Shown here: positions 2,717-53,740 of the stretch, in pieces
Numbering within the stretch: the stretch's first letter is position 1
Layout: every line of letters begins with the position of its first letter
Source of the DNA: a virus
Length of the DNA stretch: 64,000 bases
Reading direction: 5' to 3' (one strand)
IMG/VR virus record: IMGVR_UViG_3300015050_000678
Coordinates: 26,132-90,131 of that record
Notes under the pieces: generated by a model
Databases searched by the model: none
The model's input: the letters and a program-made list of their open reading frames with translations, nothing else
Told to the model about the DNA's origin: nothing
Made by a program: the position numbers and the translations under genes

Positions 2717-3284
2717 GAAAGATGAATATATAGTATGTTTAAATACCCCGGATTTGGATCCTTCTTTTCCAAAAAATTATATTTTTAAACAAAGAGAAGA
2801 TTTAGAACATCTTCGTTGTGAAAAAGATTTAACAAATTATCCTAATGGTTGGAGTTATATAACTTTTAATAATTTGGGAAAATATTCAGATTGGAGATAT
2901 GCAACTATTGAAGAAGCTCAACATTATGAACTTATCGGTAAACCTTATGATGTAACTACATTACCAGAGTTTATATTACCAGATAATTGGTATATTTTAG
3001 TTACTGAAGAAAATGCTACAGATGTTTTAACATGGAGATTTGAAGATAGTTATGAAATAAAAGATAATATTACTTTCTTAGATAAGATTGTAGGAATGGA
3101 TATTGATGGATGCAAAGGACATAATCCTAAAGATCAAATTAAATCAAAAGATGGTTATGACTTTGGTAATGAAATTACTTATAAACAATTTAAAAAATAT
3201 GTACTTAAAGTTGATGATAAACCAGTAGAAAAAGAAGACTTAAGTTATTTAATTCCATTTTTACATAATCTAAATATAACTTAA
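2709..3284 (+). CDS. Two-module protein with shared C-terminal tag (member 3)
   Basis: WRYATIEEA module plus LPDNW...EITYKQFKKYVL module; ends PVEKEDLSYLIPFLHNLNIT. Confidence 0.8.
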   Translation: MFKKDEYIVCLNTPDLDPSFPKNYIFKQREDLEHLRCEKDLTNYPNGWSYITFNNLGKYSDWRYATIEEAQHYELIGKPYDVTTLPEFILPDNWYILVTEENATDVLTWRFEDSYEIKDNITFLDKIVGMDIDGCKGHNPKDQIKSKDGYDFGNEITYKQFKKYVLKVDDKPVEKEDLSYLIPFLHNLNIT

Positions 3285-3285
3285 T

Positions 3286-3786
3286 ATGAAAGAAAAATAT
3301 AAATATGTTAAAATAATTAAAAAATCAGAAATTGAAACTGTTTGGTATAATGATAAAATTGGTAAAATAGTAAAAATTAATGCTAGAAAATTAGAAGATA
3401 GTTGTTTTAAAGTATTAGATTTTACTTGTAATAATCATTTAGGTGTATTTGTTTCACCTGATATGTTTGAATACTCAACAAAAGAAGATTATGATAATCA
3501 AAATCAATTTATATTACCTGAAAAGTGGTGTGTAAAAGATACTTTTGATGAAAAATCTAATGGGTTATACGAATATGCAAATATTAATGGAGCAAGACCA
3601 CCTTATGGAATTTCTAAAGTATCACATTATTATCATTTTCCATCTTTTAAAAACTGTACTACAGCAAGTAAAATAGAAGAAAATTATATTGAAATCACTT
3701 TAGATCAATTTTTAAAATATGTATTAAATAAAGAACCAATTAAAGAAGATATGACTGCGTTAATTAAATTACTTGAAGGATTATGA
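3286..3786 (+). CDS. Two-module protein with shared C-terminal tag (member 4)
   Basis: FEYSTKEDY plus LPEKW...EITLDQFLKYVL; ends PIKEDMTALIKLLEGL. Confidence 0.8.
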   Translation: MKEKYKYVKIIKKSEIETVWYNDKIGKIVKINARKLEDSCFKVLDFTCNNHLGVFVSPDMFEYSTKEDYDNQNQFILPEKWCVKDTFDEKSNGLYEYANINGARPPYGISKVSHYYHFPSFKNCTTASKIEENYIEITLDQFLKYVLNKEPIKEDMTALIKLLEGL

Positions 3787-4082
3787 CAATAGAAGAAGCA
3801 CAAGAAGAATGTAAAAGAAGATTTCCTATTGGTTGTACTTATAAAGATATTACTAATGGAAATATACATGTATTAAAAAATGATTATAATGTTTATAGTA
3901 TTATAAATCTTGATCTAGTACAAGCACATAATGGAGCAGGATTATTATATGATAATCGTAATGGTGAAAATATCTTTGCAAAATTAATTTCATATCCTGA
4001 AGGTTATGTAAGACCTGAAGAATCCGAACCAATAAAAGATGATCTTGAACCACTTGCTAAATTACTTAAAGAAATAACTTAA
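3783..4082 (+). CDS. Small protein with shared C-terminal tag (member 5)
   Basis: EECKRRFPIG N-terminus; ends PIKDDLEPLAKLLKEIT. Confidence 0.8.
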   Translation: MTIEEAQEECKRRFPIGCTYKDITNGNIHVLKNDYNVYSIINLDLVQAHNGAGLLYDNRNGENIFAKLISYPEGYVRPEESEPIKDDLEPLAKLLKEIT

Positions 4083-4083
4083 T

Positions 4084-4368
4084 ATGGATTTTAAAGATGA
4101 ATACGTAGAAATAATAATAGATGAAAGTTGTTTTAAACAAGGTGAAATATTAAAAAAGGAATATTATAATAATGGTACTAATGATTGGAGATTTGTATGG
4201 CCAGACGATTCCGGACAAGTATATAATAAATCATATAAAAATCATTTTATACCTTCAACATTGAAAAAATATAATAAATATTGGGGAAATCCAATTGAAC
4301 CAGAAACACCAATAAAAGATGATTTATCTGGATTAGTTAATTTATTTCAAAAACTTAATATAACATGA
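4084..4368 (+). CDS. Small protein with shared C-terminal tag (member 6)
   Basis: FIPSTLKKY motif; ends PIKDDLSGLVNLFQKLNIT. Confidence 0.8.
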   Translation: MDFKDEYVEIIIDESCFKQGEILKKEYYNNGTNDWRFVWPDDSGQVYNKSYKNHFIPSTLKKYNKYWGNPIEPETPIKDDLSGLVNLFQKLNIT

Positions 4369-4670
4369 AAAAAGAATTTGAATTACCTAAATATTGGTAT
4401 TTAAAAATAACACCTAATATATTAGATGAAGTTAACCATTTTAGAATAAATATTGCAAAATATTCTATGGGTAATATAGATGATAAACGATATCCTTTAT
4501 TATACGAAGATGGTTCTGGTGGATCTCCACCTACTAATAAGTACCAAGTTGAACTTAGTTTATCTGATTTTAGACAATATGTATTAAAAACTTCAGTTGT
4601 TGAACCAATTATAATTAATGAAGATTTAACTTATTTAGGCAAGTTTTTAAAAGATTTAAATATAACATAA
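4365..4670 (+). CDS. Small protein with shared C-terminal tag (member 7)
   Basis: LPKYW...ELSLSDFRQYVL; ends PIIINEDLTYLGKFLKDLNIT. Confidence 0.8.
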   Translation: MKKEFELPKYWYLKITPNILDEVNHFRINIAKYSMGNIDDKRYPLLYEDGSGGSPPTNKYQVELSLSDFRQYVLKTSVVEPIIINEDLTYLGKFLKDLNIT

Positions 4671-5737
4671 TGGAAGAAGTAATACACGTAGAAACACAAG
4701 AAGAATGGGATATTGTTACTGAACATTATAAGTTAGATTGGCATCGAATTTCTACATTTGATAATTATAAAAGTAAGACTTGTATAAAAGCACCAAATAA
4801 TCAATATGGAAGACTTGATTATTATTTAAGTGAGGGTTTAAAAGTAATTGAATTTAAAGAGTGGTATAAATTAATAAATAAAAATGTAAATATGAAAGAA
4901 AAAGGAATGGAAGAATTAATGTTAGATGTTTTGAATAAAACCTATGACAATCTATTATTAAGAAGAAAAACAGTTCCACTGTTTATGTCAAATCCTGGTA
5001 TGGGTAAGTCTACACTTATCAGAGAATTTGCTGAAAAAAAAGGTGTTAAAATGGTGAAAATAACACTTAGTACTAGAATGCCTAATGAAGTTACTGGAAT
5101 GGTAATGCCTGATTTAGCAAATAATGCAGCAGCATTGTTAGATAGTCATCAATTGACTAATTTAAAAGATGGTGATATTTTATTCTTTGATGAAGTATTT
5201 AATGGTGTTCTAAAACAAACATTAGATGCATTTCTAAATCTTTTAGAAGATAGAATGTTACTTAGTGGTAGAAAGTTAGCAGATGTAATGATTATTGCAG
5301 CAAGTAATCCACAAGGTTTAATTACTTTAACTCCTCAAATTAAAGAAAGATTTATTAGATATGATCTAAAGTTTGATGGGCCAGAATTTCAAGTATACTT
5401 GAAAGATAAATACGGTATGCCTGAATCTATTTCACATCATATAGTAACGTTAATTAATAAAGAAAAGTTTGAACAAGCAGCCTGGGATTATTTAACACCA
5501 AGAAGTGTAGAAAAAGCAATAAATCAAATTGGATGTGATTTACAAAGTCCATATAATGATTTACTTCTTCCATTTCTTAGTAGTGAGATAGAATCACCAA
5601 TTGATTTAAAAAGTCTTAGTATAAAACAAGGTGAAAAAGTAGAATATTTAAAATTTTTAAAATTAATAATAAAAAACAAAAATGATACAGAAAATCAAAA
5701 GCAAAAGAGTGGAGTTGCCTCCAATATTCTTAATTGA
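4670..5737 (+). CDS. MoxR/dynein-related AAA+ ATPase with extra ~74-aa N-terminal module
   Basis: Walker A SNPGMGKST, Walker B ILFFDE, sensor-1 AASN, arginine finger ERF. Possible internal start at ATG 4892. Confidence 0.85.
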   Translation: MEEVIHVETQEEWDIVTEHYKLDWHRISTFDNYKSKTCIKAPNNQYGRLDYYLSEGLKVIEFKEWYKLINKNVNMKEKGMEELMLDVLNKTYDNLLLRRKTVPLFMSNPGMGKSTLIREFAEKKGVKMVKITLSTRMPNEVTGMVMPDLANNAAALLDSHQLTNLKDGDILFFDEVFNGVLKQTLDAFLNLLEDRMLLSGRKLADVMIIAASNPQGLITLTPQIKERFIRYDLKFDGPEFQVYLKDKYGMPESISHHIVTLINKEKFEQAAWDYLTPRSVEKAINQIGCDLQSPYNDLLLPFLSSEIESPIDLKSLSIKQGEKVEYLKFLKLIIKNKNDTENQKQKSGVASNILN

Positions 5738-14186: not shown

Positions 14187-14777
14187 ATGTACGGTTTTGA
14201 AAACGCAGAAGTATCTAAAGGTAATTACAAAGAAACAATTAAACCAGGAATTAATCTAGTTAAAGTTGTTAAAATTGAAAACGGTTTAAGCTCTAAAGCT
14301 CAAGCTCCACAATTAACTATTACAGTAGAAGATGCACATGGTGCAGAATTAGCTAATAGTTATTCATTAAATACAACAATTAATCCTGGTAAAAAAATGT
14401 CTGGATGGGATGTAACTAAAAATGCAATCTTATCAATAGTTGCTGCAGCTAATTCATTAGATGAAGCTTCTGCTAAAGCTAAAATGCCTAATGCTAAATC
14501 TGCTGAAGAATTAGCTCAAAAATTAGCAATGTTAGTTGTTGGTAAAGAATTTAGATTAAAGGTTACTGGTGAAGAAAAGATTTCTCAGAAAGGTACTAAA
14601 TATGTAGCTTCATCATTTGGTAATGGTGTATTCTGTGAATCTAAACAAGTAGCTGAAACTGAAAGTAAGTTATTCTTTAATGCTGAGAAAAACATTAAGA
14701 AACTAGCTATTGAACCAGCTAGTACTACTACAGATACTACATTCAGTAGTCCTGCAGCTGATTCAGTTGTATTTTAA
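14187..14777 (+). CDS. Putative single-stranded DNA-binding protein
   Basis: Follows the Sak4-like gene; beta-rich body with a low-complexity tail ending DSVVF. Confidence 0.5.
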   Translation: MYGFENAEVSKGNYKETIKPGINLVKVVKIENGLSSKAQAPQLTITVEDAHGAELANSYSLNTTINPGKKMSGWDVTKNAILSIVAAANSLDEASAKAKMPNAKSAEELAQKLAMLVVGKEFRLKVTGEEKISQKGTKYVASSFGNGVFCESKQVAETESKLFFNAEKNIKKLAIEPASTTTDTTFSSPAADSVVF

Positions 14778-21664: not shown

Positions 21665-22742
21665 AATACAACAACCAATTTATGATTGGTTATTATCAAA
21701 AAATAGTTACTTAAAATGTAGTCCCAAAGTAGTAGCTAAATATTATCGTAAAAAAGTAGACGTTAAACATATAGTTATTGCTTTAGAGCAAGCTAGAATT
21801 GAAAGTAAAGCTAGAGAATCTGCTAAAAGTTTAGTTGAAAAAGTTAATAATAAAATTACATTTAAAAATATTAATAAAGATAAAATTACTCCAATTGTAG
21901 GTGTACATCGTGGATCTAAAATAAGTAAAGTTAAAATTATTAATGATTTTAAAATATCTAAACCTGTAATTAGAGGGCATCGTTATTTAACTCCTGGGAT
22001 GTATATTGTAATAGGATGTGCACATGCACCATTTCATTTACAACCTGCATTTAAAGCTGTTCAACAATTATTAAGTGATAATAAATCCGACATTGTAGGT
22101 TTAGTATTAGATGGTGATTTTTTAGACATGAATTCACTCAGCTCTCATGATAAAGGTAGAAAACCTATTCCGGGTGTTACTTTAGATTGGGAGTATAAAG
22201 AATCTGAACAATTATTAGATAGTTTATTAGATCCTTTAGCTAGTAATATAGAAAAGATCTATATATTTGGAAATCATGAGGATAGGTATCATAGATATAT
22301 GTCGGATATTGATAATTCTAAATTGGGTAGTTCATTAGAAGGACCTGTTTCAGGATTAAATTTAGTAAGTAAGGGGTTTGATATTTATGAAAATTGGAAA
22401 GAAGATTTTGTAACATTAGGTCATCATTTAGATGTTTCTCATGGAGAATTTTTCAATGTACACAGTGCTAAAAAACACATAGATACCTATAGAAGATCTA
22501 TTTTATATTATCATACTCATAGAGTACAACAATATATTGAAGGTGCTGTAGGTGGATATAATGGTGGTTCTATGGCTGATTTTACAGCTCCTGTATTTGG
22601 ATATGCATCTAGAGCTATGAAAAATAGTTGGTTAAATGGATTTAATGCTGTTCACGTAGATGAACAAGGATTCTATCATATTCAGCAAATAGTTTGCTAT
22701 AACAATAGCTTTGTATTTGGTAATAAAATTTATAAATATTAA
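21651..22742 (+). CDS. Calcineurin-like metallophosphoesterase
   Basis: GCAH, GDFLD, GNHEDR, SHG and HTHR motifs. Confidence 0.85.
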   Translation: MILNKIQQPIYDWLLSKNSYLKCSPKVVAKYYRKKVDVKHIVIALEQARIESKARESAKSLVEKVNNKITFKNINKDKITPIVGVHRGSKISKVKIINDFKISKPVIRGHRYLTPGMYIVIGCAHAPFHLQPAFKAVQQLLSDNKSDIVGLVLDGDFLDMNSLSSHDKGRKPIPGVTLDWEYKESEQLLDSLLDPLASNIEKIYIFGNHEDRYHRYMSDIDNSKLGSSLEGPVSGLNLVSKGFDIYENWKEDFVTLGHHLDVSHGEFFNVHSAKKHIDTYRRSILYYHTHRVQQYIEGAVGGYNGGSMADFTAPVFGYASRAMKNSWLNGFNAVHVDEQGFYHIQQIVCYNNSFVFGNKIYKY

Positions 22743-22745
22743 ACT

Positions 22746-23105
22746 ATGAAAGGTATAACAACAAATAAAAGATGGCCTGGTAAAATTGTAGCTCAATTTT
22801 GGGATGTAACAACTAAACATAATAAAATTATAGGTGTTTTTAACACTAAAGAAGAAGCAGTTGATGCTAGAAATAATTTTATTGAAAACTTAACTAAATA
22901 TAATGGTAAAGTATTACCTAAAATTAAAACATCACCTAAAGGTATTCGTATTAATATAGGTAAAAAGAAAACTTCTTATAGATCAGAAATATGTATTGCT
23001 CATGGTGTACATAAAATTACAACTACTACTATTTATTTAGGTAGTTTTAATACTTTACAAGAATCTGTAGATGTTCGTAAAAAATTTATTGATAAATTAT
23101 ATTAA
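22746..23105 (+). CDS. Tandem AP2-like DNA-binding protein
   Basis: Two copies of the motif: IGVFNTKEEAVDAR and YLGSFNTLQESVDVR. Confidence 0.7.
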   Translation: MKGITTNKRWPGKIVAQFWDVTTKHNKIIGVFNTKEEAVDARNNFIENLTKYNGKVLPKIKTSPKGIRINIGKKKTSYRSEICIAHGVHKITTTTIYLGSFNTLQESVDVRKKFIDKLY

Positions 23106-23113
23106 TAAACACT

Positions 23114-23230
23114 TAACAGATAAAATAAAAACAAGATCGAGTTACACAATTTATTGTGAGTTATTCTACTGACTTGCCTCTTAAATGACAAAACTGTAGG
23201 TGTGGGTTGAGCTTGAACAACCCTCTGTTA
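23114..23230 (+). promoter_or_regulatory. Candidate structured leader upstream of the DGR target gene
   Basis: TAACAGA/TCTGTTA closing stem with CACAA/TTGTG and GGGTTG/CAACCC hairpins inside. Confidence 0.4.
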
Positions 23231-23248
23231 TACTTAAAATTTAAAATA

Positions 23249-23704
23249 ATGTTTAATTTATTAAAAAGAAAGAAAATGAATATTGAAATTAATGGTGTTA
23301 AAATAACTTTAACGAAAGAACAATTGCAAGAAATTGCAAATCAAACTCAACAAGATATATTTACAGCAACTACTTATCATGAAGTTTGTAAAAGATTAAA
23401 TGAAAAAGAATTAGAATTTAAAGATTTTGCTTTTTTAAAACACGAAGATGTTAAAAAAGCATTAAATTTTGCTAGAATTAAACAATTAGAAAGATATTTT
23501 AATCAAGGGTGGATTCCAAATTGGTATGATTCTTCAGAGTATAAATATTATTTATGGTATCAATTTAAAAATAGTGGTTGGGTTTTCGATAGTGTCGACG
23601 ACCGCGGCTACGGTTCTTATGCTGAGGTTGGTTTTTATAAAAATGAAAAAATTGCAAAACATATACAAGAATATTTCAATTCAGAGTACTTAAATGTACT
23701 TTAG
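23249..23704 (+). CDS. DGR target protein with C-terminal variable repeat
   Basis: ORF track starts at TTG 23207; ATG 23249 or 23276 is more likely. Reads W.PNW.D..EYKYY.W, then the VR-encoded SGWVFDSVDDRGYGSYAEVG. Confidence 0.8.
   Translation: MFNLLKRKKMNIEINGVKITLTKEQLQEIANQTQQDIFTATTYHEVCKRLNEKELEFKDFAFLKHEDVKKALNFARIKQLERYFNQGWIPNWYDSSEYKYYLWYQFKNSGWVFDSVDDRGYGSYAEVGFYKNEKIAKHIQEYFNSEYLNVL
23572..23633 (+). repeat. DGR variable repeat (VR)
   Basis: Ungapped 62-nt match to 23725-23786 with 14 mismatches, all opposite A in the other copy. Confidence 0.9.
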
Positions 23705-23724
23705 TTTATAGTAAATAACTCTAT

Positions 23725-23786
23725 TAGTAGTTGAGTTTTCAATAGTGTCAACAACCACAACTACAATTCTAATACTGAAGTTAGTT
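23725..23786 (+). repeat. DGR template repeat (TR)
   Basis: Non-coding, AAC/AAT-rich copy (GTC AAC AAC CAC AAC TAC AAT TCT AAT) starting 20 nt after the target stop codon. Confidence 0.9.
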
Positions 23787-23802
23787 ATACTTTAAATATT
23801 AT

Positions 23803-23810
23803 TATATTTG
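23803..23810 (+). promoter_or_regulatory. Possible Bacteroidota -7 promoter element
   Basis: TATATTTG matches TAnnTTTG; the -33 element is weak. Confidence 0.3.
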
Positions 23811-23929
23811 AATAAGATTAATTAAGTAAAATATTAAATAACTATAACTATTAGTAATTATTAACTTTTAAAAAAAATAAAATGTTAGTTTAATTTTTAC
23901 AACTAATATGTTGTAGTTATTTATCAAAT

Positions 23930-24135
23930 TGAACCAACAGGCTTAATTATACTCTGCTGAAGGCCCTTGAAATAGGATTTCCAGGTAAGTTTGAGGTGAT
24001 GCCCACTAAGTTGAGTGCCTTGTATGTGACTTAAGCATAATTACAAGTAGCTATATAAGATTAGTTTTCAAACAACTGATGAATTTCAGATTGTCTAATG
24101 CTTATATTAATCCAAGGAGCTCTAGCCGCTTGGTA
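23930..24135 (+). ncRNA. Candidate ~200-nt structured non-coding RNA
   Basis: No ORF, GC-richer than flanks, at least five stems seen by eye. Confidence 0.55.
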
Positions 24136-24154
24136 ACTTTAAAATTAAATAATT

Positions 24155-24307
24155 ATGAAAGATCCTATTAAAATATGTAAATGTACTCAGTGTAGAGGAT
24201 CTAAAAGAAAAAAGAAATCTTCTATAAAGAAGTTCTTTAAAAGAATGTTAAATAAGAAAAGAAGAACGTCATCTAATGGAGATGTTACTTCTTTTTGTTA
24301 TGCTTAA
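24155..24307 (+). CDS. 50-aa highly basic peptide with CxCxxC
   Basis: MKDPIKICKCTQCRGSKRKKKSSIKKFFKRMLNKKRR... Confidence 0.55.
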   Translation: MKDPIKICKCTQCRGSKRKKKSSIKKFFKRMLNKKRRTSSNGDVTSFCYA

Positions 24308-24324
24308 ATTAAAAAATAAATATT

Positions 24325-24582
24325 ATGAGTACAGACATTAAAGTAATAGAAGGAAGTTGTCACAATGATAAAAAAGGTACTTTTCATACTGAATATAATA
24401 CAGCTAAAGTTTATTTAACTAGGTTTTATAATGGTGAAGAAAGAGGTTCTAACATACAATTAACTGTTCAACAAAATGGTGAATATGGTACTAGTTATAT
24501 ACATTTAAATAAAGAACAAGTAGAAGAATTAGGAAAAACATTATTAGAATGTTTTGATTATGATAAATATCCAAGTGAATAA
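24325..24582 (+). CDS. Hypothetical protein
   Basis: 85-aa ORF. Confidence 0.65.
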   Translation: MSTDIKVIEGSCHNDKKGTFHTEYNTAKVYLTRFYNGEERGSNIQLTVQQNGEYGTSYIHLNKEQVEELGKTLLECFDYDKYPSE

Positions 24583-51932: not shown

Positions 51933-53740
51933 ATTCCGTAATAATTTTTAATACTTGTTTGGATAGAATACCTATCACTTAATGTAGGTGATCCAGCTTT
52001 TACAATAACATCTTGACAGTAACCAATAAAACCATAAGCAGAACTTTCTCCCATTAAATTAGTAATATTAAAATTATTTGTTGTTAATGTGTTTGTTTGA
52101 TCTAATAATCTGGTTCCATTTTTATAACTTTGAGCATCTAAAATATCTCTATACCATTCATGTAAATCTTGATGATTTAATACATAATCAGTACCTGATT
52201 GAGCATAACCTCCAGCACCACCCAAATTATGATATATAGTACCACCTACTGAATTATAAAAACCATATCCTGCTGTTCCACCAAAAAATTCCCTAGCATT
52301 AGCTGTCCAATATAAAACTGCACTTAGTGAATATTGATTACCTAAATTTATTTGATTAGTTAGTAATAATGTTTTGTCACCACTTACTGAGTAAGAACTA
52401 GGTTTACCATTAGTTAAAATCATTGTTCCTGCAATTCCAGCTTGTGGTCTATTACCTACCGTATTATACGCATGGTTATTATTTCCACTTCTGTCATATC
52501 TAATTGACCAATAGAAATCTCGTCCAGCAGCCCAAGTTTGAACTGCTGTAATATCAATATCAAATTTATTAGATCCTGTACCTCCTATAAATCCTACCTC
52601 AAAAGTATCTAAACCATTTAATGTAGCTACTTGACCACATTTAGTTCCTGTCCAAGGAGTACCATCAAAATATTCACCATTACGCATGGCTAATATTAAA
52701 GCACATCCTTTTGGTATATTATTATAATAAGTAACATCAACCTTTTCAATTTTATAAGAAACTAAAGGAGTATTATTACCACCTATAAAATGCAATGCAT
52801 TATTATAAGTTAGTGAACCTGCTGCGTGTGTATGAGGTTGTGTAGTTGGATTTCCAAATATATCTACAAGTTTAGTCCATGTAATTGCATCACTTGAATA
52901 GTATATTAATTGATGATTGCCTGACGCATTTCCACCAACTGGACTATAACCAATACTCATCCAAATTTTATTGTCAAATACATCACCACTAGGCCAAGCA
53001 CTTTTAAATTCAACAGGAAGTGTAGCTATGTTTGTCCAAGTAACTCCATCAATACTTTTATATACCGAATCATTATAATTAGCAATATTACCTGGTGCAG
53101 AAGTTGTTGTAAATATAGCACCACCAATAAAATATAAATATCCATTTAATGAATACAATTTACCTGTAGACATTGTATTTGGAAATGATGCTATTGTAGT
53201 AAAATTAATACCATCTACTGTTTTGTAAACATTAGTATTATCAATACCACTACTTCTCTCTTCACCACCAACTATATAAAATTCATTGTTATGTAAACAT
53301 CCAGCAGCAATATTCAATCCGCTTAAACCCCAATCTGCTGTCATTTGTTGCCAAGTTCCTGCACCATCACAAGCCCATACTGCAGTAATATCTACACCAT
53401 ATAATGGATCACCACCAAATATCCAAGCTTGATAACCTAACCATGAACCACAATTTAAAGCAAAGTGCATATCGTGCCAAGGAGCATCAGTTAATTGAGT
53501 AAATGTAACACCATCAACAGTTTCGTATTGCTCATTAGTGCTTGGTGTAAAATTAGCTCCACCAGCAGGATTCCAACCACCAAAAAATCTAATTTTATTA
53601 TTTACTTTTTGCATCATTGGACCATCCCTCCAAGGAGTAATAGCATTATTCTTCAACATTTTCATGTTGTAATAACCATTAATAGTTGTTCCTATCTGAT
53701 TAGCTAATGATGTAAAATACCATTGATTATTTGGAGTCAT
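51929..53740 (-). CDS. Kelch beta-propeller plus lectin-like (LamG-type) protein, probable receptor binding
   Basis: Repeated FFGG/IFGG/IVGG/FIGG Kelch motifs, SxDGxTW boxes and YDRSGNNNHA. Confidence 0.65.
   Translation of the reverse strand: MTPNNQWYFTSLANQIGTTINGYYNMKMLKNNAITPWRDGPMMQKVNNKIRFFGGWNPAGGANFTPSTNEQYETVDGVTFTQLTDAPWHDMHFALNCGSWLGYQAWIFGGDPLYGVDITAVWACDGAGTWQQMTADWGLSGLNIAAGCLHNNEFYIVGGEERSSGIDNTNVYKTVDGINFTTIASFPNTMSTGKLYSLNGYLYFIGGAIFTTTSAPGNIANYNDSVYKSIDGVTWTNIATLPVEFKSAWPSGDVFDNKIWMSIGYSPVGGNASGNHQLIYYSSDAITWTKLVDIFGNPTTQPHTHAAGSLTYNNALHFIGGNNTPLVSYKIEKVDVTYYNNIPKGCALILAMRNGEYFDGTPWTGTKCGQVATLNGLDTFEVGFIGGTGSNKFDIDITAVQTWAAGRDFYWSIRYDRSGNNNHAYNTVGNRPQAGIAGTMILTNGKPSSYSVSGDKTLLLTNQINLGNQYSLSAVLYWTANAREFFGGTAGYGFYNSVGGTIYHNLGGAGGYAQSGTDYVLNHQDLHEWYRDILDAQSYKNGTRLLDQTNTLTTNNFNITNLMGESSAYGFIGYCQDVIVKAGSPTLSDRYSIQTSIKNYYGI

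Follow-up and report, generated by a model that had tools for sequence, protein, structure and literature searches.

An apparently amputated diversity-generating retroelement cassette in a complete phage genome with no detectable reverse transcriptase

The stretch of DNA considered here, bases 26132-90131 of the 90,131-bp IMG/VR viral record IMGVR_UViG_3300015050_000678, is 64,000 nt long (hereafter the window; coordinates count within it unless marked as genome positions) and carries on its plus strand a cassette of the kind found in diversity-generating retroelements (DGRs): a target gene with a variable repeat (VR) inside it, followed by a template repeat (TR), with no reverse transcriptase (RT) gene beside them. 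The record, of 27% G+C, is bounded by direct terminal repeats of 123 bp and is rated 100% complete by CheckV, and the genome is therefore complete. Its large terminase (TerL) is 32-35% identical to those of gut crAss-like phages, and closer terminases than these are encoded by 109 IMG/VR contigs, which places the phage, as judged from this protein, as a distant, crAss-like one. Five public runs share words with the record, in small shares (0.06-0.09), under the labels freshwater, lake, aquatic or viral metagenome; the contigs of four of these runs were compared with the window, stretches without cover not being counted as evidence, and they represent relatives of the phage only. The features of the cassette are as follows.

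23231..23826, plus strand: 596-nt island containing the whole cassette, missing from a close relative without a DGR (record G001)
23249..23704, plus strand: target gene P0001, intact, 151 amino acids (aa), member of a small phage protein family
23572..23636, plus strand: VR, target codons 108-129, delimited by adenine-aware scan
23725..23789, plus strand: TR, non-coding, beginning 20 nt past the target stop codon, delimited by adenine-aware scan
23794..23806, plus strand: 13-nt AT-rich word AAATATTATTATA at the putative deletion junction, found on both sides of 1.6 kb of extra DNA in a contig of public run X2
23794..23835, plus strand: spacer RNA remnant (3' 42 nt), identical at 40 of 42 nt to L101 5530-5571

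The core of the repeat pair aligns VR 23572-23633 with TR 23725-23786 over 62 nt without gaps, and each of its 14 mismatches falls on a TR adenine, the 40 positions with other bases being identical (40/40). The probability that all 14 mismatches would land on the 22 adenines among 62 positions is 1.1e-8 under a hypergeometric model. The adenine-aware scans add 3 nt to the pair, which then measures 65 nt and has 16 of 16 mismatches at TR adenines and none at the 41 other positions. The first-pass annotation of this DNA, made from the letters alone, had described the 62-nt gap-free pair with its 14 mismatches all at adenines (14 of 22) and its 40 identical remaining positions, and had placed the start of the TR 20 nt after the target stop; both descriptions are reproduced here, the pair being somewhat longer than first reported and the TR starting at 23725 behind a stop codon at 23702-23704. 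The VR/TR pair is thus confirmed as genuine. The VR lies inside the coding target, and the TR adenines fall mostly on codon positions 1 and 2; read in the VR frame, the TR is rich in AAY, with AAT or AAC at six codons. The adenine-aware scan of the genome revealed no second VR or further TR copy, the next-best site having 17 non-adenine mismatches at 41 positions. The same scan returned two other pairs (genome 18022-18057/13431-13466 and 20505-20538/16893-16926), with 15 adenine-site mismatches in 34-36 nt, which probably represent chance similarity between A-rich stretches.

A search of 5.8 billion proteins recovered 10 homologs of the target protein P0001, with identities of 35-81%. In their alignment, residues ~114-127 are different in every sequence and their flanks are nearly invariant, and these hypervariable residues are exactly the codons templated by TR adenines. 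In the public contigs of relatives, the piece that spans the VR differs from the window at 22 letters over 171 nt, whereas a contig of run X4 that spans 23624-23806, and with it the TR, differs at 5 letters and by 1 gap over 183 nt. The DGR has thus been active in the lineage of this phage.

The 14 core mismatches comprise 13 A>G and one A>T, a composition that we compared with 142 TR/VR pairs (1,967 changes) of the RT clade described below, in which A>G accounts for 55%, with A>T at 30% and A>C at 15%. At these rates an A>G share of at least 13 in 14 has a probability of 0.003, and a share of 0.9 is reached by 2 of the 142 pairs. We considered this bias as a sign of a different mechanism and rejected the idea, the bias being extreme but inside the range of the clade. 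Furthermore, the TR contains a TGA (TAG in one relative, L190) opposite a conserved Trp codon of the VR, a feature common to the window and to the related loci L183, L185, L188 and L190. Faithful copying of the adenine of this stop codon would truncate the target, and in this clade a working VR must carry A>G there, so that part of the bias is forced by a sequence feature that the relatives share.

No RT was found in the genome. A search of the whole 90,131-bp record with the RT profile PF00078 gave 0 candidates, and since the same search picks up the RT of a related phage at 67.5 bits, the method works on such DNA. A tblastn search of the whole genome with three RTs of the relevant clade gave a best E-value of 0.41, a six-frame scan for the [YF]xDD motif yielded 17 sites, 0 of them in an RT-like context, and Pfam annotation of 26 of the 107 open reading frames (ORFs), the larger ones outside the structural block, returned 20 families, none of which is an RT. 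An RT hidden by another genetic code in the low-coding genome region 10-16 kb was also considered and rejected: with TGA, TAG or TAA reassigned, the longest frame was 184 aa. No accessory protein (Avd or HRDC) was recovered either, the Avd profile PF05635 giving 0 matches in the genome; avd is likewise absent from about a quarter of known DGRs (PMC5758913), so an accessory protein is not strictly defining. The first-pass annotation had claimed that no RT, RT remnant or Avd is present in the 64 kb and had proposed a search of the full genome; the profile, tblastn and motif searches uphold that absence and extend it to the complete 90,131-bp record, with no RT elsewhere in it.

Comparison with relatives delimits the cassette and supplies the missing parts. 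In the DGR-less relative G001 (locus L096), no sequence separates the match to window 23203-23230 from the match to 23827-23939, and the cassette is therefore a discrete island of 596 nt. The five closest long IMG/VR relatives (TerL 87-90% identical, four of them at least 96% complete) contain neither the target nor an RT. Of 47 further terminase-family records, a single one contains an RT, namely G020 (94,209 bp, complete, TerL 65% identical; its locus is numbered L099 and L189), in which a 315-aa RT lies between two P0001 paralogs, each with its own VR and its own TR. The same order, target 1 (T1), TR1, RT, target 2 (T2) and TR2, is seen in a 63,452-bp record at locus L101 (also numbered L183). 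In both, the TRs begin 17-22 nt past the stop codons of their targets, and the metallophosphoesterase gene that directly precedes the DGR in L101 also precedes the cassette in the window. P0001 is homologous to these targets beside RTs, each of which has its own TR (E 6e-18 to T2 of G020 and E 6e-11 to T2 of L101), being nearer to the downstream-type T2 (E 6e-18) than to T1 (~5e-5), and the TR is homologous to TR2 of G020, with 79% identity over 71 nt. The target is therefore related to the targets of complete DGRs.

The DGRs of these relatives are modular, with two or three modules around a single RT and no avd gene, for which G020 and L101 leave no room between target, TR and RT. Their full order is target-VR-TR-spacer RNA-RT-target-VR-TR-spacer RNA; in G020, L101, L188 and L190, each target is followed by its own TR and then by its own structured spacer. 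This spacer was defined on a larger set of 80 IMG/VR loci, fetched for having RTs 55-70% identical to P0038, a 315-aa RT retrieved with the G020 RT as query. At least one clean TR/VR pair is present in 76 of the 80, and in 75 the TR ends 90-154 nt ahead of the RT start, mostly 103-107 nt. The 100 nt ahead of the RT start align well over 66 distinct sequences. In the predicted helices 96.3% of cells pair, against 35-46% when partners are slid, with compensatory changes in 10 of 11 pairs, and 0 of 500 shuffles matched the observed covariation score, a control that related sequences can pass without structure. By these data, the TR-to-RT spacer of this large clade of Bacteroidota-phage DGRs is a covarying structured RNA. 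At one locus (L103 2412-2491), the spacer matches the whole Rfam model RT-17 (RF03020) with an E-value of 0.002 and 34.4 bits, a resemblance below the gathering score of 40.4. RT-17 belongs to a series of motifs, RT-1 to RT-19, discovered beside bacterial RT genes; such motifs have been proposed to work in DGRs, the related RT-10 being placed between the TR and RT of BPP-1 (PMC5737381, Weinberg and colleagues). The element is a candidate priming or recognition site for this large, Avd-less clade.

A covariance model (R1) was built from those 66 sequences, with the crAss-type loci left out. It matches after nine of nine modules in the RT-bearing crAss-type loci (L183/L101, L188, L189/G020 and L190; E 1.6e-8 to 0.0019). 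In contrast, R1 found no match near the window TR: the best match in the genome, at 52723-52800, scored 16.5 bits, and with filters off on 23000-24500 the best was 7.5 bits. What the window keeps is the 42-nt tail at 23794-23835, whose counterpart L101 5530-5571 is the end of the second element of L101, placed by R1 at 5463-5570. The 5' two thirds of the spacer, with hairpin 1 and a conserved A-run, are missing, and no complete structured non-coding RNA of the kind that separates TR and RT in the relatives is seen in the window. In BPP-1, cDNA synthesis is primed from the 2'-OH of spacer residue Sp A56 and requires almost all of the spacer that lies downstream of the TR (PMC6182149). By analogy, the truncation would be expected to leave the TR of the window useless as a template, even if an RT were provided in trans.

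The closest target ortholog provides a second view of the same position. The only Logan contig on which P0002 (79% aa identity to P0001) is recorded has a length of 2,441 nt. In run X2, a contig of 2,441 nt matches window 23173-23806 at one end and, close to its other end, 23794-23927; the two matches are separated by 1,600 nt peculiar to the contig, so that the 13-nt word at 23794-23806 stands on both sides of the extra DNA. The insertion point lies 20 nt past the TR. In L101, a spacer of ~100 nt, the 948-nt RT and a second target-VR-TR module add up to ~1.6 kb. The RT P0038 likewise has just one recorded Logan contig, also of 2,441 nt, and the equal lengths and single-contig counts are circumstantial evidence that P0002 and P0038 share one contig. 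In run X4, a hairpin-1-like sequence was seen by eye directly after position 23806 in a relative.

Loss of the RT is not confined to this genome. A search with the downstream-type target returned 69 loci, of which eight (L183-L190) are of the crAss-type modular kind and were studied in detail; at the other 61, an RT lies within 4 kb in 29 and none in 32, 28 of which also have no clean pair. The full RT is kept in L183, L184, L188 (three modules), L189 and L190, and L185 and L186 hold only C-terminal RT remnants, of 43 and 32 aa respectively, beside an otherwise clean target-VR-TR. At L187 (positions 3254-4497 of the 33-kb record G055), two target-VR-TR modules lie 76 nt apart, the RT and first spacer having been cleanly excised; the second VR is one codon short, opposite an AAC of its TR, in an alignment read by eye. 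L186 (positions 3715-4521) lies in G054, a complete genome of 96,910 bp with terminal repeats, and has a clean 64-nt TR/VR pair and a partial spacer match of 25.8 bits; PF00078 has no match in G054, and the 32-aa remnant is all that is seen of its RT. The L186 target contains an in-frame TAA that splits it into ORFs of 86 and 87 aa, which shows that RT-less cassettes do decay. With the window counted, four of nine loci are without a working RT, two of them in complete genomes, and this small sample contains at least three different deletion patterns. The R1 spacer follows three of five modules in the RT-less or remnant loci, against nine of nine in the RT-bearing ones.

Since the genome encodes no RT, the cassette is not a working DGR, and it bears the marks of one that worked until recently. 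We consider the best reading, with a probability of roughly 0.6, to be that the spacer, the RT and probably a second module were lost by deletion and that the VR is frozen as a result. The ancestor would have carried a modular DGR in the order target-VR-TR-spacer RNA-RT-target-VR-TR-spacer RNA. Two copies of the 13-nt AT-rich word would then have bounded a deletion of ~1.6 kb that took out the RT gene, the 5' portion of the spacer RNA behind the TR and probably the second target module, so that the TR flank now meets the final 42 nt of the downstream spacer. Such an event explains the missing RT, the truncated spacer, the 13-nt junction repeat and the 1.6 kb of extra DNA in the closest relative. 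Because TR and VR agree at 41 of 41 non-adenine positions and the target is intact, the loss looks recent, as judged from sequence. The first-pass annotation had left the choice between service in trans and recent amputation undecided, and had named a monomorphic VR together with an RT deleted at this spot, as seen by comparing relatives, as the signs of a relic. The comparison of relatives bears out the second of these, the RT being found at the same locus in L101 and G020; together with the 1.6 kb of extra DNA and the lost spacer, this favours amputation, and service in trans is the less favoured of the two.

Several observations weigh against the deletion. No decay is seen here, with 0 of 41 non-adenine mismatches and an intact target, and RT-less or RT-remnant cassettes with clean adenine-only pairs, at four of the nine crAss-type loci, would seem many for a dead end. 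The link between P0002 and P0038 can be a coincidence of equal lengths: P0003 and another RT, P0025, both list 1,315 nt, yet cannot share so short a contig. The 1.6-kb insert of the X2 contig is known by its length and flanks, not by its content, and the junction at 23794-23806 is without confirmation from reads or any other contig. Finally, the need for the spacer is drawn by analogy from BPP-1, which is Avd-dependent, and the present clade is without Avd.

The absence of decay is what one would expect if the cassette were a non-autonomous module, still diversified in trans by the RT of a co-infecting related phage, an explanation that we regard as possible but unlikely. The foreign RT would either copy the TR of the window or, more plausibly, make cDNA of its own near-identical TR that homes into the window VR, and the latter route could proceed with neither the TR nor the spacer of the window. 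The avd, TR and brt components of BPP-1 work in trans from a plasmid, and DGRs act on remote targets (PMC5758913). In the relatives a single RT already serves two or three separate TR modules, and RT-bearing relatives with a near-identical TR are present in the public runs, as the X4 contig indicates (5 letters and 1 gap in 183 nt). The agreement of TR and VR at 41 of 41 non-adenine positions, the recurrence of clean adenine-only pairs in RT-less or remnant modules (four of nine loci) and the retention of the spacer element in three of five such modules point the same way. Against this stand the loss of the 5' two thirds of the spacer, an element found after nine of nine modules in RT-bearing relatives and whose truncation should, on the BPP-1 analogy, stop priming; the nonsense codon in the target of one RT-less relative, as decay rather than maintenance predicts; and the five closest TerL relatives, in which the cassette is absent and the locus is therefore dispensable. 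A broader version of the same idea, to which we assign slightly less credence still, is that the target-VR-TR units of this phage group behave as semi-independent modules, which last although they bring no RT with them and are diversified at co-infection by the RT and TR RNA of relatives. If that were true, the four of nine RT-less loci would be users of a shared enzyme rather than relics, and would constitute an analogue, at the level of the phage population, of non-autonomous retroelements.

It is also conceivable, but improbable, that this genome never had an RT, and that recombination with a relative carrying a DGR brought in a truncated copy, the target-VR-TR piece alone. Compared with G001, the cassette stands out as a separate island of 596 nt, it is absent from the five closest TerL relatives, and P0001 is closer to T2 than to T1, with a right flank matching the flank of the second module of L101, all as such an import would have it. 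However, the contig of the closest ortholog has the same left and right flanks with 1.6 kb between them, for which a single deletion is simpler. The outcome of an import, no RT and a truncated spacer, would be the same as under the deletion model. Very improbable, in our view, is an artefact or minor variant, in which the real population carries the RT and the RT-less contig comes from the assembler or from a rare deletion variant. Modules of this type are repeated, with TRs and spacers in direct orientation, and the junction has no independent contig or read to confirm it; but the junction word shared between the two sides is only 13 nt long, below the usual k-mers of assembly, which are longer than this. 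The record moreover is closed by its 123-bp terminal repeats, its length is in keeping with the 85,961-91,443 bp of the four relatives that are at least 96% complete, and other records show different, independent losses of the RT.

The window cassette is best filed as a degenerate member of a modular, Avd-less DGR variant. Like the BPP-1 system (mtd-VR, avd, TR, spacer, brt), it shows adenine-specific TR-to-VR differences and a VR at the 3' end of the target, and the relatives of the phage share with BPP-1 a structured non-coding spacer between TR and RT. Unlike BPP-1, the genome encodes neither RT nor Avd, the TR is a short one of 65 nt, the VR and TR ends have by eye no GC-rich stretch in common that resembles an initiation of mutagenic homing (IMH) site, and no C-type lectin or Ig fold was detected for the 151-aa target in searches with its predicted structure. 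The predicted structure of P0001 has a mean confidence (pLDDT) of 85, with a best E-value of 0.74 in a Foldseek search of the PDB and a best Z of 3.6 in a VIA-align comparison with 48,161 chains, and its matches in BFVD are uncharacterised phage proteins only. These scores tie the target to no solved fold and speak neither for nor against a C-type lectin fold. The closest likeness is to the modular freshwater crAss-like DGRs of G020, L101, L188 and L190, with which the cassette shares a homologous target and TR, the locus after the metallophosphoesterase gene, a TR starting 17-22 nt past the stop and A>G as the commonest change; those DGRs retain a 315-aa RT and comprise two or three modules in which each TR has its spacer, whereas the window has one module, no RT and a truncated spacer. 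A DGR is also described in a gut crAss-like phage, crAssphage LMMB, with all essential elements including the RT and a target encoding a tail-related protein (PMC7290462). One RT serving several VRs, or more than one TR, is reported for Treponema and Legionella (remote targets) and for Stenotrophomonas SKA14 (two TRs), but there the RT lies in the same genome as the targets (PMC5758913; PMC6642488). DGRs as such, DGRs of crAss-like phages, remote targets and a two-TR DGR are thus already in print. Our literature search found no description of RT-less or orphan DGR cassettes, with the proviso that cases without an RT or with several TRs could be listed in the supplementary tables of PMC5758913.

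To our knowledge, DGR surveys start from the RT gene, and RT-less cassettes therefore escape notice. The present case is an RT-less cassette in a complete phage genome, with relatives that show how such a cassette arose. The natural series from full DGR through RT-less cassette to no cassette is usable to measure the rate at which a hypermutation system is lost, and it offers a test of whether RT-less modules continue to be served in trans.

Two features flank the cassette outside the DGR.

22746..23105, plus strand: ORF of 119 aa, similar to the C-terminal part of HNH homing endonucleases (phrog_99, E 5.4e-8, profile positions 216-277 of 383)
23871..24158, plus strand: conserved non-coding stretch of higher G+C, 69-75% identical in the DGR-less relatives G001 and G003, with no Rfam family

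The ORF is 92% identical in the DGR-less relative G003 and is probably, from its profile match, a truncated endonuclease gene. The higher-GC stretch was considered as the DGR's own RNA and rejected, being kept in DGR-less relatives; it could be an independent small RNA or regulatory region, and its middle (~23928-24098) is swapped for a different sequence of 78 or 242 nt in contigs of other relatives. Searches of the window with Rfam at gathering scores and with ARAGORN gave no match, and blastn of window 22700-24400 against 50,697 phage records gave none.

P0001 matches the profile phrog_11581 (E 1.1e-6). A single-sequence search of IMG/VR recovered no relative of it, and the alignment of its family, searched against IMG/VR and JGI metagenomes, recovered only proteins sharing its N-terminal module (L001, L005 and L006) and a homolog without a DGR (L004), with no TR/VR pair. 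A 21-nt core of the TR had no match in IMG/VR, and its one match in GTDB genomes, in a GC-rich coding region, was judged to be chance and rejected. The N-terminal module 'NGVKITLT..QL.EI' (P0001 residues 8-35) also occurs on an unrelated 142-aa phage protein (L001 9977-10405), which suggests module shuffling among small phage proteins. Ahead of the window, ~3.8 kb of the genome (10,300-14,100) contain few ORFs longer than 70 aa, and a tRNA-Gln(ttg) lies at genome positions 14,607-14,684.

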